Shown: positions 1,547 through 14,786 of the stretch, piece after piece | Layout of the letters: every line of letters starts with the position of its first letter | Position numbering within the stretch: position 1 is the stretch's first letter | Source: a virus | Taxonomy: Duplodnaviria > Heunggongvirae > Uroviricota > Caudoviricetes | Virus record (IMG/VR): IMGVR_UViG_2740892047_000005 | Reading direction: 5' to 3' (one strand) | DNA: 19,034 bases | The notes under the pieces: model-generated | Told to the model about the DNA's origin: nothing | The model's database searches: none | The model's input: only the letters and a program-made list of their open reading frames with translations | Made by a program: the position numbers and the translations under genes

Positions 1547-1927
1547 TCAGTCAGCCCAACCTGATTTCGAGTTTATTTGGGTTTCTGACATTGTGTATTT
1601 CTTAATCGTGTCATCGTCAAAAAGAATAGTAAGTTCTTTTTTCGTACCGTTCGTTCCATTATGGAATAATCCATAGAATGGAATAAAAGTGGTGCCATTA
1701 ACTTTTACTTTTGCAAAGGCGTACTTCCAGATCTCGTTTCCACTGTCAGTATATGAAACAGCATCAGGAGAACCAAAGTAAGATTTAACCTCATTCTTGG
1801 TTGTTTTACCTTCCTGAAGTTTAGACTGGACACTAATTTCAGTTTCATTTTTGAGTTGCTGGTTGCCTGAAGAAGCACACCCAGCCAATAGAGATGCCAT
1901 CATGGCAGCGATTAGGATTTTTCTCAT
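1547..1927 (-). CDS. Lipoprotein (126 aa) with signal peptide and lipobox LLAGC; AT-rich moron between OL and cI (rexAB position)
   Basis: N-terminus MRKILIAAMMASLLAGC has a signal peptidase II lipobox. The mature part is S/T/N/K-rich and reminiscent of small BamE/OmlA-like lipoproteins (not verified). Lies 229 bp downstream of cI on the same strand, with a terminator after it. Confidence 0.8.
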   Translation of the reverse strand: MRKILIAAMMASLLAGCASSGNQQLKNETEISVQSKLQEGKTTKNEVKSYFGSPDAVSYTDSGNEIWKYAFAKVKVNGTTFIPFYGLFHNGTNGTKKELTILFDDDTIKKYTMSETQINSKSGWAD

Positions 1928-5818: not shown

Positions 5819-6796
5819 TTAAATTGCAGGATCTTTTCCAACGGCAAGGAAAGGTTCTTGGTCTAGTGCAGTAAACGAAGCTTCGTTATTAAGCAAACGA
5901 ATAAAATATAATTTTTGTCTTTTGGTGGATAACTCAATTAACCCTGCTTGATTTATAATTATATTTCTTCCTAATATTGGGAAGTTTTGTATTAAACGCT
6001 GAATGTTAGCGATGGTTATAGTTCCGCTTTTTATTAGAGAACTGTTTGCTGTTGTAGCTAGTTTACGCATAAAATTTCTATTTTTATGCATATCATCAAA
6101 TATACCAAGTGGGTTTTGCAAGTTAGAAGTATCTAGGATATTCAATCCAATTATATGCGGTGTCGCTGTTGCTGCTAAATTATTAATTATTTGCTCGAGT
6201 CCATATACTCGCTCTAATAAGTTAATGTTTAAAGCATAGTATTTATTATTAAAATAAAAGAAATCAACATTTCCGTTTATATCAATACTGTCATGGTTAA
6301 CTTCGTCTAGTGTTCGTCCATTGGCAGAGAAATAGGATAGTCTTGTTTTTTTATGCAAAGATATTGGGTATTTATGTTGATAAACTACAACTCCATTACC
6401 TTGCCCATCGCAGAGATAGTATACAATTCCTTTAACAGAAGATAAGTCTTGCTGTTTGAAATCAAAATCAGGAGGGGTGTTATTAACTCCGAAATTAAGT
6501 ACATCTGGCATTTTTGCTAGAGCATCTGGGAGATGGTTTATTACATTATAATCATATTCGTAAACTTGTTTATCTCTATTTAGAAGGGAGGATACCAACG
6601 GCAAAAAGTTTTGACCAGCATTAGGGGCGATAACATCACGTTTAAGTGATTTGCTAAAAGATTGGGTTAATTTTTTTTCTGCACCAGGTTCTAATGCTAC
6701 TCGGTATATTTGTGTTATCCCTTTGTGTTCTGCAACGAAAAAGGCTTCACCAGAGATGTTGGCAGAATTTAAGATGTTATCTATTGCTGTAAACAT
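5819..6796 (-). CDS. Hypothetical 325-aa soluble protein, second gene of the AT-rich two-gene cassette; candidate defence effector (possibly KwaB/DUF4868-like, unverified)
   Basis: Intact ORF with RBS GAGGG 4 nt before ATG 6796. Starts 15 bp after the stop of the upstream membrane-protein gene on the same strand. No Walker A, no GS...DxD nucleotidyltransferase motif and no obvious nuclease motif seen by eye. N/I/L/K-rich, consistent with low-GC origin. Confidence 0.8.
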   Translation of the reverse strand: MFTAIDNILNSANISGEAFFVAEHKGITQIYRVALEPGAEKKLTQSFSKSLKRDVIAPNAGQNFLPLVSSLLNRDKQVYEYDYNVINHLPDALAKMPDVLNFGVNNTPPDFDFKQQDLSSVKGIVYYLCDGQGNGVVVYQHKYPISLHKKTRLSYFSANGRTLDEVNHDSIDINGNVDFFYFNNKYYALNINLLERVYGLEQIINNLAATATPHIIGLNILDTSNLQNPLGIFDDMHKNRNFMRKLATTANSSLIKSGTITIANIQRLIQNFPILGRNIIINQAGLIELSTKRQKLYFIRLLNNEASFTALDQEPFLAVGKDPAI

Positions 6797-6811
6797 AATG
6801 CCCTCATTATA

Positions 6812-7411
6812 TTAAACAATCTTTGCGAGACAAGTGTCATTATCTATTTTTATATATTTTATAGTGCTTTTATTATTTATTTCTCCACGACATATTATCA
6901 CAAATTCTTTTTTTCCGCGGTCGTTAATATTCGCTCTAAAAATTCTGAACCCTAATAGTGCAAGTGACGGATTTGAATAAAATCGATTTGTTTTAACATA
7001 AATCATTCCGATTGCAATTATCATTATTAATAGATTCAACATTGTTCGTTTGCTATTTACATCAGTAAAGACTAGTGGCATGACATAAGTTGTCAGGAAC
7101 TCTAAATGTTCATGGCTCTCGTTTTTTACGTCGGAAACAGTACATGCGACAGACCAACCAGAGTTAAATGATAAAAACAAATATAAAAATATAAAAAAAC
7201 CTGCCACCATCATTATAAAACTAAATAAAAAAACTATATTTTTGGGTGTGATTTTTGAAATGAATATAGCAAAGTCTTTATTGTTATAAGTTGAAATTAT
7301 AGTAAATATATTTTTATCATATGACATTATAAATAGAGAAACAAATAATAGCCATAGAGATAATATATATAGCGCATACTTTAAAGCTGTTCTATTTTTC
7401 ATGTTTTTCAT
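6812..7411 (-). CDS. Predicted multi-pass inner-membrane protein (about 4 TM helices), first gene of the AT-rich cassette; candidate sensor/membrane component (possibly KwaA-like, unverified)
   Basis: Hydrophobic segments ALKYALYILSLWLLFVSLFIMSY, IVFLFSFIMMVAGFFIFLYLFLSF, LEFLTTYVMPLVF, MLNLLIMIIAIGMIYV, then a ~55-aa charged C-terminal tail. Start uncertain: ATG 7411 (MKNMKNRT...), ATG 7402 or GTG 7426 (ORF track). Confidence 0.75.
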   Translation of the reverse strand: MKNMKNRTALKYALYILSLWLLFVSLFIMSYDKNIFTIISTYNNKDFAIFISKITPKNIVFLFSFIMMVAGFFIFLYLFLSFNSGWSVACTVSDVKNESHEHLEFLTTYVMPLVFTDVNSKRTMLNLLIMIIAIGMIYVKTNRFYSNPSLALLGFRIFRANINDRGKKEFVIICRGEINNKSTIKYIKIDNDTCLAKIV

Positions 7412-8362
7412 CTCTTGGGGAAACACCGTTTTGATACCGTTGCCAGCGAATATAACACTTTAATTAATTACGGTAAGTAACTTATAACAGTCAATAGATG
7501 TAAATAGAGATGGTGTGGAATCATTACTTGATGCTTTGGCACGCTACCGCCACAAACTCGTTGTGGTGAGTCTGTGGTATGTAGTCAAAACATAGATTTG
7601 CTGTTGTAATGTTACACCTGCATGGGTAACAAAATCTAGTGCGATACACATAGCCACTGACCATCTATACTGGTTTAATATACAGCATTTTATGACGATT
7701 CTCAATTATGAAACTAACTATTTTACAACCAGTTATGGATATCTATGCTTTTATGTACTAAAAATTCTTTAGTTACAGATGTATTGATGACGAGAAATTG
7801 CTAAAGCAAGATGAGTAAGGAACTAAATCAATAAAGTGGGGGCGGGGGGAGTTCGAGTGGCTAGGAGCATAGCGCTTGATTACTTTTGGTGGTTGAAAAA
7901 TGTTCGGTTGGGTGTCGCTAGGTGACTAATAGCTAAATTGGGAGATATACATATATAATATGAAATAAATCCCCACTTAATGCTTGTGAAATATTTATGT
8001 GACAAGCGGGTGTTCTTATTGATATTAAAATTCAATAACAGTGAGTTTTTATTCTTTTCTAAGTTTTGTAAATTGTTCTCACAGAGAAGGTTTAATTGTA
8101 TGTGCCTATATTTTTTTCTAGTGAATATAATGTCGGAATATATTAATATTGGCATATTCAGCAATGACTTCAAATATTCTTGATTTTCGATAATCAACTC
8201 GCCATAATCTCGTTGCTGTCGGCCTGAACATCCGGCGGTGGGGTTGCGCTAAACGGGGACGTTTATGCGCACACACAATCCAAACTCTCTTCTCCCTTCA
8301 CAGATGCAGAAATGCACCTGCGATTTTTTGTATTCTGCGTTTTACCTCTACGGAGGTGAAGC

Positions 8363-9852: not shown

Positions 9853-10236
9853 ATGCGTGATATTCAGATGGTTCTTGAGCGTTGGGGAGCGTGGGCGGCT
9901 AATAATCATGAAGATGTGACCTGGTCGTCCATTGCCGCCGGTTTTAAGGGATTAATTCCTTCAAAAGTAAAATCTCGCCCGCAATGTTGTGACGATGACG
10001 CGATGATCATTTGCGGGTGCATGGCCCGTCTGAAAAAGAACAACAGCGATTTGCACGATTTATTAGTAGATTATTATGTAGTCGGTATGACATTCATGTC
10101 ACTGGCAGGTAAGCATTGCTGCTCTGATGGTTATATCGGGAAAAGGTTACAGAAGGCTGAGGGCATAATTGAAGGGATGTTAATGGCATTAGATATCCGG
10201 TTAGAGATGGATATCGTTGTTAATAACTCTAATTAA
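9853..10236 (+). CDS. quuD: Late-gene antiterminator Q (quuD-type), 127 aa
   Basis: ATG 9853 with SD GGAG (9842-9845): [34 protein letters not shown]...[18 protein letters not shown]... Cys-rich zinc-binding pattern of Q proteins. Matches DLP12 QuuD as I recall it. ORF track starts at 9838. Confidence 0.88.
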
Positions 10237-10252
10237 TATGCCAATTGTTTAC

Positions 10253-10415
10253 TAAAAATTATTAAAAATGGGGCGTTGCAACGCCCCCAAAAATAAAGGG
10301 TAATATATAACAGAAGGTTTATATAGTTAGAAGCAAGGTTGTGCTCCTAAAGGAAGTGGCTTGAGGGAGCCACTTATATGTTGGGGAGGCAAAGCCTCCC
10401 GCAACATATCTTTTT
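10253..10415. terminator. Intergenic hairpin cluster between convergent Q and nmpC: likely nmpC terminator(s), possibly also the PR'/qut/tR' region
   Basis: Perfect palindrome GGGGCGTTGCAACGCCCC (10270-10287) followed on the minus strand by a U-rich run (rc of ctaaaaattattaaaaat). Further hairpins agtggcttgagggagccact (10355-10373) and gggaggcaaagcctccc (10384-10400), the latter followed by a T-run on plus (10411-10415). Strand assignment is uncertain. Confidence 0.4.
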
Positions 10416-10425
10416 CGTAATCAGA

Positions 10426-11523
10426 TTAGAACTGGTAAACCAGACCTACAGCAACGATGTCATCAGTGCTTACACCGAGTGCTTTAGTGAAGTCATTTTT
10501 GTCAAGCAGGTTGATTTTGTAATCAACGAAAGTAGACATATTTTTGTTGAAGTAATAGGTTGCACCTACATCAACATATTTGACTAAGTCCTGATCGCCC
10601 CATACTCCAAGATCCTTACCTTTAGATTGCAGGTAAGCAACGGACGGACGCAGACCGAAATCGAACTGATATTGTGCAACAGCTTCGAAGTTTTGAGCTT
10701 TATTAGCAACGAAGTGATCAGCAAATACAGTCATATTCTGGGTTTCAGAATAGGTAGTGGCCAGGTAAATGTTGTTAGCGTCATATTTCAGACCTGCGGC
10801 CCAAACTTCTGCATTTTTACCGGAAGCAAATACTTCAGGAAGAACTTTCCCTGCATTAACTTGAGTGTCGGTACGATCAGATTTTGCATAAGTTGCACCG
10901 ATACCGAATCCTTCGTATTCATAGGTAGCAGAGAAACCGAAGCCATCACCGTTACCTTCGGTGTAGTTATCGAAATCGCTACGATCGTTTTTGCCTTGGT
11001 ACTGAGCAGCAAAGTTCAGACCATCAACCAGGCCAAAGAAGTCGTTGTTACGATAGGTTGCAACACCAGTGGTGCGACCAGTCATGAACACATCTGTTTG
11101 GGTCCAGGTATCGCCACCGAATTCTGGCAGAACGTCAGTCCACGCACCGATGTCGTATGCTACACCGTAGTTACGGCCGTAATCGATGGAGCCGTAGTCA
11201 CCGAATTTCAGGCCAGCGAAGGCAAGACGGGTTTTATCTTTGGAGGAACCTTGAGATTCAGCGCGGTTGCCTTTGAATTCATATTCCCACTGACCGAAAC
11301 CAGTCAGTTGATCGTTGATTTGGGTTTCACCTTTGAAGCCAAGACGGGCATAAGTAGTATCACCATCATCTGCATCATTAGAGGAGAAGTAGTGCTTAGC
11401 ATTAACTTTCCCGTACAGATCCAGCTTGTTACTGTCTTTATTATAAATTTCAGCTGCCTGAGCAGACATCGCCATCAGTACTGATGCAGCTACAGCAGAA
11501 ATTGCCACTGTTAATTTTTTCAT
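10426..11523 (-). CDS. nmpC: Outer-membrane general porin of the OmpC/OmpF/NmpC family, 365 aa, intact
   Basis: Signal peptide [23 protein letters not shown], then [24 protein letters not shown]... and C-terminal ...VAVGLVYQF (terminal Phe typical of beta-barrel OMPs). Convergent to Q, between Q and the lysis cassette, as nmpC is in DLP12. Confidence 0.93.
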
Positions 11524-11951
11524 CGTGAGCCCTTTTTTTTGAACTATTATTAAAAAATGATGTCACTGCGCGATAAATATTCATCTAATCAATATGATTA
11601 TTTCAAGATGTAAGTTTTGGTTTCTCGTTTGATTTGTGAAGTAGATCTCTATTTTTATCTGAACTTTTTTCTATCGAATCCTATTCATGGCTCTTGGCTG
11701 AATAAAAATAAATCTATTAGCCAATTTATATTAACGGTTGTTATTTATAAGTGCTCTATGATTTGAAGGTTCAATTTAAATCGGCTAAAAATAACACTAG
11801 AAATTATTTGTTGGTTATTTGTTGAGATTTGCTTATGTATTTGTAGTGGTGTTTTCAATACTCGGTAGCATTCTCGCAAATATCATTTAGTGGTTTACGT
11901 ACGTAAAAAATTGGTTATGCTGTTAAGAGTGGTTACTTCGTCACACAGCTT

Positions 11952-11984
11952 AAACCCGCCGTCGAGCGGGTTTTTCCATTTTTT
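11952..11984 (+). terminator. Rho-independent terminator on the plus strand, upstream of the holin gene
   Basis: Stem aaacccgc / gcgggttt with loop cgtcga (11952-11973), followed by ttccatttttt. Confidence 0.45.
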
Positions 11985-12096
11985 GAGTCTCGATATTAGC
12001 TGATAACCCAATACCTGAGTTATTCACTGACTCCGAGTCTGTTACGTTTCGTAGTATTCCCTCAATTTACACCCGCTTTGTCTGCGAGGTGGGGTT

Positions 12097-12312
12097 ATGA
12101 AATCCATGGATAAGTTAACAACGGGTGTCGCCTATGGCACCTCAGCAGGTAGTGCCGGTTACTGGTTTTTACAGCTGCTCGATAAAGTCACGCCCTCACA
12201 GTGGGCAGCAATAGGTGTGCTGGGTAGCCTGGTATTTGGCCTGCTGACGTACCTGACAAACCTTTATTTCAAGATTAAAGAAGATAAGCGCAAGGCTGCG
12301 AGAGGTGAATAA
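12097..12312 (+). CDS. essD: Class II holin of the phage 21 S (pinholin) type with dual-start motif, 71 aa
   Basis: [71 protein letters not shown]: two TM segments, charged C-terminus, Met1-Lys2-Ser3-Met4 dual start. Resembles S21/EssD from memory. Confidence 0.88.
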
Positions 12313-12809
12313 TGCCTCCATCATTACGAAAAGCTGTTGCTGCTGCTATTGGTGGCGGGGCTATTGCTATAGCATCTGTGTTAATCACTGGCCCAAGTGG
12401 TAACGATGGTCTGGAAGGTGTGAGACATAATCCTTACAAAGACATAGTTGGTGTATGGACTGTATGTTACGGGCATACAGGAAAAGACATCATTCCCGGT
12501 AAAACGTATACCGAAGCAGAGTGCAAAGCCCTCCTGAATAAAGACCTTGCCACTGTCGCCAGACAAATTAACCGGTACATCAAAGTCGATATACCGGAAA
12601 CAACGCGCGGCGCTCTTTACTCGTTCGTCTACAACGTGGGTGCTGGCAATTTCAGAACATCGACGCTTCTTCGCAAAATAAACCAGGGTGATATTAAAGG
12701 CGCATGTGATCAGCTACGGCGCTGGACATACGCTGGCGGTAATCAATGGAAAGGACTGATGACTCGCCGTGAGATTGAGCGTGAAGTCTGTTTGTGGGGG
12801 AAACAATGA
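12312..12809 (+). CDS. rrrD: SAR endolysin (T4-lysozyme-like glycoside hydrolase with N-terminal signal-anchor-release domain), 165 aa
   Basis: Gly/Ala-rich weakly hydrophobic N-terminus [20 protein letters not shown] (SAR-like). Catalytic triad spacing E-x8-D-x5-T in [17 protein letters not shown] as in T4 lysozyme (E11/D20/T26). Start overlaps holin stop (TAATG). Confidence 0.88.
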
Positions 12810-13243
12810 GCAGAGTAACCGCGATTATCTCCGCTCTGGTTATCTGCATCATCGTCTGCCTGTCATTGGCTGTTAATCATTACCGTGATAACGCCATGAC
12901 CTACAAAGAACAGCGCGACAAAGCCACATCCATCATCGCTGACATGCAGAAGCGTCAACGTGACGTAGCAGAACTCGATGCCAGATATACAAAGGAGCTT
13001 GCTGATGCTAACGCGACTATCGAAAGTCTCCGTGATGATGTTTCTGCTGGGCGTAAGCGGCTGCAAGTCGCCGCCTCCTGTGCAAAGTCAAAGACCGGAG
13101 CCAGCAGCATGGGCGATGGAGAAAGCCCAAGACTTACAGCAGATGCTGAACTCAATTATTACCGTCTCCGAAGTGGAATCGACAGGATAACCGCGCAGGT
13201 TAACTACCTGCAGGAGTACATCAGGACGCAATGTCTGAAATAA
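12806..13243 (+). CDS. Spanin inner-membrane subunit Rz (i-spanin), 145 aa
   Basis: ATG 12806 overlapping the endolysin stop (ATGA). N-terminal [20 protein letters not shown], then a coiled-coil-like charged periplasmic domain. Position after the endolysin. Confidence 0.82.
13005..13190 (+). CDS. Spanin outer-membrane lipoprotein subunit Rz1 (o-spanin), embedded in the +1 frame of Rz, 61 aa
   Basis: ATG 13005 with strong SD AAAGGAG (12991-12997). [20 protein letters not shown] signal plus lipobox, followed by Pro-rich [13 protein letters not shown]. Entirely inside Rz in another frame, the classic Rz/Rz1 arrangement. Confidence 0.72.
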
Positions 13244-13448: not shown

Positions 13449-13970
13449 ATGAATATCGTGCCACTTAATTACAAAGGTGAAATTGTCAGTTTCAACACTG
13501 ATGGTTGGATCAACGTCACAGGTGTTGCTGAGAGATTTGGGAAACGCATTGATAACTGGATGCGTTTGGCAGAAACGCTTGAATACGTTCGTGCTTTAGA
13601 CGAAGCGTTGACCGGGAAAGAATCTCAAATTTTACATCCCTCACAATCGAGGTATGTAAAAACCAGCAAGGCACGAAAGGACAGGGGTGGTGGTACGTGG
13701 CTACATCCAAAACTTTCAGTTGCATTTGCCCGTTGGTGTGATGCTCGTTTTGCTGTGTGGTGCGACCTGCACATTGATAGTCTGCTTCGCGGTGAACTGA
13801 CTGAGCAGCAGAAATATGAGCAAGCATGTCGCATTCGCGATGACCGGAAATCAAAAGCCAGCAATGGGGCAAGAGAGATGGCTCGCTGGCGATGGGATAA
13901 GCCGGTTATTGAAGCAAATGTTGAGTACTGGCGCGAGCAACTGCAGTTGACTCTCGATATCGCGTGCTGA
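13449..13970 (+). CDS. KilA-N domain protein (antirepressor-like N-terminal DNA-binding domain), 173 aa
   Basis: N-terminal region NYKGEIVSFNTDGWINVTGVAERFGKRIDNWMRL...WLHPKLSVAFARWCD fits the KilA-N/APSES-like pattern as I recall it; not verified by HMM. Confidence 0.7.
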   Translation: MNIVPLNYKGEIVSFNTDGWINVTGVAERFGKRIDNWMRLAETLEYVRALDEALTGKESQILHPSQSRYVKTSKARKDRGGGTWLHPKLSVAFARWCDARFAVWCDLHIDSLLRGELTEQQKYEQACRIRDDRKSKASNGAREMARWRWDKPVIEANVEYWREQLQLTLDIAC

Positions 13971-14319: not shown

Positions 14320-14730
14320 TTAGTGCGGAAATATTTGTGTAGTGTTCTGAATGTTCTCAGTAAAGAGTAATGAATTATCAAAGGTATAGTAATACCTTTT
14401 GTTTTCGTGGATATTTGTAATCCATCTGAAAACCCCTGCTGTAGCAAGATTTTTTCTGTATTCGTAAAATGATAACTCTCCTGATTTGAATCCTTTTAAG
14501 GTGGCTTCTATAAGGCATTTATTTTTTGAAAATCTTACATTTACAACCTTACCCTGTCCTTTTATTAAAACCGTATTATCGTTTTCAAGAACAAGATGAA
14601 TATTCTCTGTGGCTAAATAGTAAATGTAATGTGAGACATTGTGACGTTTTAGTTCAGAATAAAACCAGTGATAGTTTAAATTATTTCGCACTTTATCGAA
14701 TATTTGTTTAAAAATGGCAACCTGAGCCAT
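14320..14730 (-). CDS. ybcV: YbcV-like protein (DUF1398 family), 136 aa, AT-rich
   Basis: From ATG 14730 (SD GGAAGG 7 nt upstream): [58 protein letters not shown]... matches DLP12 YbcV as I recall it. ORF track starts 5 codons earlier at 14745, with no SD. Confidence 0.75.
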
Positions 14731-14786
14731 TGTAGTACCTTCCATGTGATATGAGGGGCGTAGTCTGCACGATTATCTAAATTGCT

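Follow-up and report, generated by a model that had tools for sequence, protein, structure and literature searches.

An intact nmpC porin gene with an IpeX-like 3′ tail lies upstream of the late promoter homologue in a DLP12-like lambdoid prophage

Introduction

When a porin gene lies between the late-gene antiterminator Q and the lysis genes of a lambdoid prophage, on the strand opposite to both, is it a working gene, and is it governed like stx, which is carried between Q and the holin in Stx phages? The question is raised by a minus-strand porin gene in a 19,034-nt stretch of viral DNA (hereinafter the window; coordinates are positions in this whole stretch unless another locus is named). 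We consider it very likely that a DLP12-like lambdoid prophage here carries an intact nmpC-ipeX unit as a lysogenic-conversion module, which works as a porin swap. Earlier work on nearly identical sequences already covers the gene, its prophage location and promoter, its inactivation by IS5 in K-12, the sRNA, and the phenotype of intact alleles; the sole small addition made here is an explicit map that places the module upstream of the homologue of the late promoter pR′, outside the late transcript. The identification of the module is of use for annotating the strain.

An intact gene for a full-length porin

The porin coding sequence (10426..11523, minus strand; 365 aa, ATG start, stop codon included) is intact and coincides exactly with an uninterrupted 365-codon frame in the ORF list of the window. 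The Pfam Porin_1 model (PF00267) matches it across model positions 1–337 of 337 (E=1e-156), with 522 bits where the cutoff is 23.7. The protein also passes the NCBIfam OmpC subfamily model (526.5 bits; cutoff 484) and falls at full length within PHROG 410 (E=8e-220). Solved chains of OmpC, OmpK36, OmpF, and PhoE align over the whole mature protein, residue 24 (AEIYNK) to the terminal YQF, with E=1e-135 for OmpC and OmpK36. Residues 1–23 (11455..11523, minus strand) read as a Sec signal peptide that ends in AQA; its predicted cleavage before AEIYNK agrees with the AQA-A motif in the sequence and with the solved mature chains, which begin at residue 24. Further features of the protein are the L3 constriction-loop motif PEFGGD (LPEFGGDT at residues 132–139) and the pore basic residues K39, R60, R99, and R150, which are invariant in an alignment with OmpC, OmpF, and OmpD-type porins. 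The chain closes with VYQF, Phe being the last residue, and a C-terminal aromatic beta-signal of this kind is a requirement for porin assembly. From the 58–63% identity to the solved OmpF and OmpC of K-12, we infer that the product would adopt the trimeric 16-strand β-barrel and have pore activity. The gene is real and probably functional.

The initial annotation had described a full-length NmpC-family porin whose gene lies between those of Q and the holin and runs opposite to them, a description borne out by the ORF, the complete Porin_1 match, and the Pfam hits to the flanking genes. A frameshift or insertion was looked for by careful realignment and none is present, because the alignment to the rebuilt NmpC of K-12 (see below) is gapless. 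Four additional ORFs in this part of the window (10627-11484, 10378-10587, and 11617-11766 on the plus strand; 11895-12011 on the minus strand) gave no significant Pfam match and were treated as shadow ORFs.

Correspondence to nmpC of K-12 and distribution of the intact allele

For comparison with K-12, its NmpC was rebuilt from the annotated pseudogene by taking out IS5 and one copy of the TTAG target duplication, which restores a protein of 365 aa. The window porin is identical to this protein at 363 of 365 residues without gaps, the sole differences being G149 and T151 in the window against Q and A in K-12. The resemblance extends beyond the coding sequence: nmpC (b0553) with ipeX in the cryptic prophage DLP12 of K-12 shares the gene, its flanks, and the gene order (rusA-ylcG-quuD / nmpC / essD-rrrD-rzpD). 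In K-12, IS5 lies after codon 346 with TTAG duplicated and the C-terminal strand is lost, whereas the window copy is uninterrupted. The statement in the initial annotation that DLP12 carries an IS5-disrupted nmpC was thus correct, and the disrupted gene is the same gene as that of the window. As judged by these alignments, the window gene is an intact nmpC allele of DLP12-type lambdoid prophages.

This bears on a different reading, in which the porin is a core host gene (an ompC or ompD orthologue) that abuts the prophage, or is the product of a chimeric assembly. Its assignment to the NCBIfam OmpC subfamily and the name 'porin OmpC' used by the sources would suit such an origin; however, the protein is merely 63% identical to OmpC and 58% to OmpF of K-12, it belongs to PHROG 410, and phage genes flank it on both sides in a block that is collinear in 36 sequenced phages. 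Moreover, a survey of 80 loci, drawn from representative genomes (one per species), found Q and the ipeX tail beside the porin in Escherichia loci only. We accordingly give a host-gene or chimeric origin practically no credence and retain the nmpC-ipeX module of a DLP12-like prophage.

The exact window protein occurs on at least 1000 public contigs, under the names 'porin OmpC', 'outer membrane porin protein LC', and 'NmpC'. Of 5426 complete E. coli genomes, 3368 contain DNA that matches a 1.8-kb stretch made up of the porin gene and the region upstream of it, one strain being 100% identical, and the phages with the Q-porin-holin block include plaque-forming lambdoid ones (e.g., PhiR26_1, 99.2%). 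A 120-bp probe laid over the K-12 IS5 site was unbroken in 760 of the 1059 genomes with this 3′ allele, so the intact gene is the common state in natural isolates; the genomes with a split probe have, among the matches listed, the appearance of K-12 derivatives. An intact copy is therefore common and not unusual.

Phage copies of nmpC are not all intact. In the laboratory phage 434B (locus L001, 2127-4423), nmpC has the K-12-type IS5 insertion, and the annotation marks the surrounding segment as non-434 DNA; this suggests that 434B acquired DLP12 sequence by recombination. In phage ev243 (locus L090, 626-1769) the porin is annotated as two ORFs, and translation of the full span yields 42 stop codons, consistent with a 5′ frameshift.

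Relationship to other porins and variation among phage alleles

The window porin shares its fold family with the E. coli general porins OmpC, OmpF, and PhoE (the full Porin_1 domain, the PEFGGD motif of L3, and the C-terminal YQF), and its indels and differences relative to OmpC and OmpF cluster in external loops. Its closest relatives outside Escherichia are OmpD of Salmonella and the OmpD-type porins of Citrobacter and Enterobacter (the phage gene itself is often annotated 'OmpD'): identity is 74–81% to the OmpD-type porins of Salmonella arizonae, Citrobacter, and Enterobacter, and 96% to the copy of E. albertii. Within 2.5 kb of the OmpD-type porin genes of Salmonella, Citrobacter, and Enterobacter, neither a Q or holin homologue nor an ipeX-like 3′UTR was found. 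The two codons that differ from K-12, 149 and 151 (about 11071-11079), flank the invariant constriction-zone Arg150; the G149/T151 version is common to the window and the OmpD-type porins of Salmonella and Citrobacter, and the Q/A version to K-12 and E. albertii.

Comparison of the window with phage loci L089-L094, L006, and L009 distinguishes at least three types of nmpC allele. Residues 1–180 are invariant across them, and the variation is confined to five short segments (~182-190, 219-232, 268-272, 299-315, and 340-352), which by their position in OmpF/OmpC numbering we take to be the external loops L4–L8. This pattern suggests exchange of loop cassettes or diversifying selection on the exposed surface, and variation in such segments is consistent with a surface-exposed receptor or antigen under selection. 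In some databases the exact window protein is named 'outer membrane porin protein LC'; an Lc porin (protein 2) is encoded by the lambdoid phage PA-2. Work from the Schnaitman laboratory in the 1970s–80s reportedly placed that phage porin between Q and the lysis genes and found it to be made in lysogens, and Lc is said to have been tied classically, by work of the same laboratory, to lower OmpC and OmpF and to exclusion of PA-2 itself.

A predicted IpeX sRNA in the 3′ untranslated region

The stop codons of the porin and Q genes are 189 bp apart, and on the porin strand this interval contains four hairpins and a strong intrinsic terminator. The terminator (10264..10287, minus strand) consists of GGGGCGTTGCAACGCCCC followed by ATTTTT, with a 7-bp stem that includes 6 GC pairs; the terminator scan placed its T-run on the minus strand only, and the stem is invariant in 10 phage and prophage loci. 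Between the porin stop codon and the terminator U-run, the 3′UTR (10258..10425, minus strand) measures ~162–167 nt, and a 201-bp stretch that spans it is 98% identical (197/201) to the nmpC-quuD interval of DLP12 in K-12. Its predicted fold has a minimum free energy of –62.4 kcal/mol (z=–7.67 against shuffled sequences), and the hairpins are kept in the same 10 loci. A covariation test on these loci returned one compensatory pair, minimal support for the structure because the 10 sequences are too similar to one another and barely vary.

According to three later papers that cite the primary description, IpeX is a 167-nt sRNA of DLP12 that arises from the porin promoter within the porin transcript and is then processed, and it represses ompC and ompF (PMC12197685; PMC5069750; PMC7177473). 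The 3′UTR of the window porin matches IpeX in both sequence and length, and the RNA itself is a prediction. The initial annotation had overlooked this second half of the module. Since the 3′UTR corresponds to the published ipeX, a repressor of ompC and ompF, the unit would be a porin-plus-sRNA 'porin swap' module. There is no Rfam model for IpeX, and searches with Rfam recovered no family at gathering thresholds across the whole window or at E<=1 in 10150–12150; two weak hits, to a Trp leader and to a snoRNA, were set aside as chance matches.

Position relative to Q and the presumed late promoter

The genes on either side of the module are those of DLP12. Q (QuuD type; 9853..10236, plus strand; Pfam PF06530, E=9.7e-54) is 99–100% identical to QuuD of K-12 and of LZSFT34, 79% identical to Q of VT2-Sakai, and a distant match to the solved structure of Q21. 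The holin (EssD/S21, i.e., P21 type; 12097..12312, plus strand; Pfam PF04971, E=2e-35) is 100% identical to EssD of K-12 and is the first gene of a lysis cassette (12097-13243) that comprises a P21-type holin, a SAR-type lysozyme, and Rz. With Q and the holin at these positions, the porin gene is convergent with Q and lies between it and the lysis cassette.

To locate the late promoter we relied on homology with Stx phages. An 83-bp block at 11893-11975 is the sole significant match in the window to the late promoter segment of VT2-Sakai and phi24B (77–78% identity); its counterpart in those phages directly follows Q and is annotated 'putative late promoter / Q-utilization / terminator'. By this homology we recognize a pR′-like late promoter (11894..11921, plus strand; TTTACG, a 16-nt spacer, and TATGCT) and a position homologous to the qut site annotated in VT2-Sakai and phi24B (11935..11942, plus strand), beside which the block TAAGAGTGGTTAC (11924-11936) is fully conserved. 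A hairpin with a T-run found by the terminator scan (11952..11985, plus strand) is likely tR′; in VT2-Sakai its homologue is the first 'possible rho-independent terminator'. The assignment of pR′ is thus a putative one, made by homology to features that are themselves annotated 'putative'. Together, the pR′-like promoter and the hairpin (11894-11985, plus strand) would cause the lysogen to make a short RNA of ~55 nt constitutively. An sRNA like StxS was considered and ruled out: the pR′ transcript of Stx phages is matched no further than its first hairpin, and the 74-nt StxS part therefore has no counterpart here.

The distance from Q to the presumed pR′ is 1657 bp, and it is filled by the nmpC-ipeX unit. 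Here the likeness to the Stx phages (933W, VT2-Sakai, phi24B) divides into two. Their cargo likewise lies between Q and the holin, and their pR′/qut block is ~77% identical to that of the window. In VT2-Sakai and phi24B, Q is followed at once by pR′, qut, and the terminators, with stx downstream of these, so stx is co-transcribed with the late genes; the toxin genes share the late strand, come after pR′ and tR′, and are induced together with lysis (PMC7547250). In contrast, the pR′/qut/hairpin block of the window is downstream of the porin 5′ end, and the porin accordingly lies upstream of pR′ and outside the late operon. Unlike stx, nmpC runs against the late genes, with a promoter region and a terminator of its own, and, by analogy with near-identical sequences, would be expressed in the lysogen. 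The description of this interval as the one that carries stx therefore stands as geography, in the sense of a Q-to-holin cargo site, and fails as regulation, because the pR′/qut block lies beyond the porin 5′ end.

The same map weighs on the proposal that the porin is an stx-like moron of the late operon, its expression tied to Q-dependent late transcription at induction. The Q-to-holin position, as for stx, is what recommends this proposal; the porin is nevertheless on the opposite strand, the only pR′/qut homologue is downstream of its 5′ end, and it ends at a terminator of its own and has a promoter region that hardly differs from the PnmpC mapped in K-12. We therefore hold late-operon control to be very improbable and keep to the self-contained nmpC-ipeX module.

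The porin promoter and evidence for expression

The promoter region of the porin, PnmpC (11524..11722, minus strand; –199 to –1 from the start codon), is nearly identical to the mapped promoter of K-12: the 577 bp that precede the start codon (window 11524-12100), of which it is part, show 8 differences. In K-12 the –199 to –1 segment contains a sigma-70 promoter with a start site mapped by 5′RACE, which is activated by Crp and repressed by OmpR, IHF, and MprA (PMC11677980). A consensus sigma-70 scan of 10100–12200 found no site for either PnmpC or pR′, and for this reason neither is fixed to the base from sequence. A pattern search further recovered the candidate Crp site TGTGAAGTAGATCTCT (11635..11650; 2 mismatches to the consensus); since the number of such 2-mismatch matches across the window is below the chance expectation, it stays a candidate that is consistent with the published Crp control.

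Published work on intact nmpC offers a guide to what this promoter might do. In K-12 strain NCM3722, which has an intact nmpC, NmpC makes up ~2% of the proteome and is the main porin in carbon limitation, and OmpC is >10-fold lower than in an nmpC::IS5 strain of MG1655 background, a gap that the authors read as compensation, a role of IpeX in it not being proven (PMC8144880). Reactivation of nmpC by IS excision was found to raise permeability to cefotaxime (bioRxiv 10.64898/2026.08.19.745717). The suggestion in the initial annotation that an intact phage porin could change outer-membrane permeability is thus already realized for intact nmpC, and the porin profile changes as well (PMC8144880; bioRxiv 10.64898/2026.08.19.745717). 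For the particular host of this prophage, we infer expression by analogy with these near-identical sequences.

An intact gene could still be a quiescent one in this host, kept essentially silent by repressors or nucleoid proteins that act on the AT-rich region upstream, such that it would have no phenotype unless activated or selected. The 29% GC content of that region, the lack of a strong consensus promoter in the scan, and the published repression by OmpR, IHF, and MprA (PMC11677980) fit this reading, as does the title of Prilipov et al. 1998, where the nmpC porin gene of E. coli B is termed 'quiescent'; going by that title, an intact nmpC can be weakly expressed in some backgrounds. Against it, the near-identical K-12 promoter is active enough to drive the IS5 transposase and has a mapped transcription start site (PMC11677980), NmpC reaches the share of the NCM3722 proteome cited above (PMC8144880), and one study records ipeX transcripts in clinical isolates (PMC7177473). 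We judge quiescence in this host to be unlikely, and favor a porin-swap module that is expressed in the lysogen.

A porin-swap model

Under the model that we favor, host RNA polymerase in the lysogen would start at the Crp-activated sigma-70 promoter that belongs to nmpC, in the AT-rich segment 11524-11722, and transcribe the gene leftward. The NmpC precursor would be exported by Sec and lose its 23-residue signal peptide, after which BAM would insert the protein as a trimeric 16-strand general-diffusion porin of the OmpD/NmpC clade. Beyond the nmpC stop codon the transcript would continue for ~165 nt, as far as the strong intrinsic terminator that lies 27 bp from the Q gene, and this tail would be processed to IpeX, which would lessen the synthesis of OmpC and OmpF. 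The phage porin would thereby take the place of the host porins, especially in carbon limitation. In this scheme the expression level, the control by Crp, and the action of IpeX are carried over from the literature on near-identical sequences.

A lysogen with intact nmpC-ipeX would plausibly have a different major porin in carbon limitation, and with it an altered permeability to nutrients and β-lactams and an altered outer-membrane antigen profile; surface receptors for other phages may be removed or changed, and exclusion of such phages could result. The classical work on PA-2 and its Lc porin is said to point to the same consequences for permeability and receptors. Because the module lies between Q and pR′ and on the opposite strand, it falls outside the late transcription unit, and because it is upstream of pR′ the expression logic of nmpC would be opposite to that of stx, though both are 'between Q and S'.

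A further and rather doubtful suggestion is that the placement of nmpC-ipeX is itself regulatory, the module splitting Q from pR′ and sharing with pR′ a 370-bp AT-rich divergent control region. The module would then be antisense to N-antiterminated early transcription passing Q, and on induction such read-through would silence the porin and IpeX by collision; Crp, OmpR, and IHF bound at PnmpC could in turn modulate pR′ and the lysis genes, coupling the envelope and carbon state of the host to the leakiness of the late genes. In the literature searched, we found no description of a regulatory Q-nmpC-pR′ placement.

Other cargo in the window

Directly after the replication gene P, the window contains a complete two-gene Kiwa anti-phage defence system (5819-7426, minus strand), composed of KwaA (6812-7426, minus strand; PADLOC E=5e-88) and KwaB (5819-6796, minus strand; PADLOC E=7e-149). 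The same position is occupied by ren, emrE, and ybcK in LZSFT34, whose porin is a 100% match, and by PD-lambda-1 in phage PhiR26_1; it looks like a swappable slot for defence cargo. Downstream of Rz, a KilA-N domain gene (13449-13970, plus strand) stands where DLP12 of K-12, 434B, and PhiR26_1 have bor/iss, and it is followed by a DUF1398 (YbcV-like) gene (14320-14745, minus strand). Finally, between kil and the cI-like repressor gene there is an ORF of 126 aa (1547-1927, minus strand) that belongs to PHROG 3135 (unknown function) and shows a sub-threshold match to the BamE domain (E=1e-4), and this ORF may be a further moron directed at the envelope.
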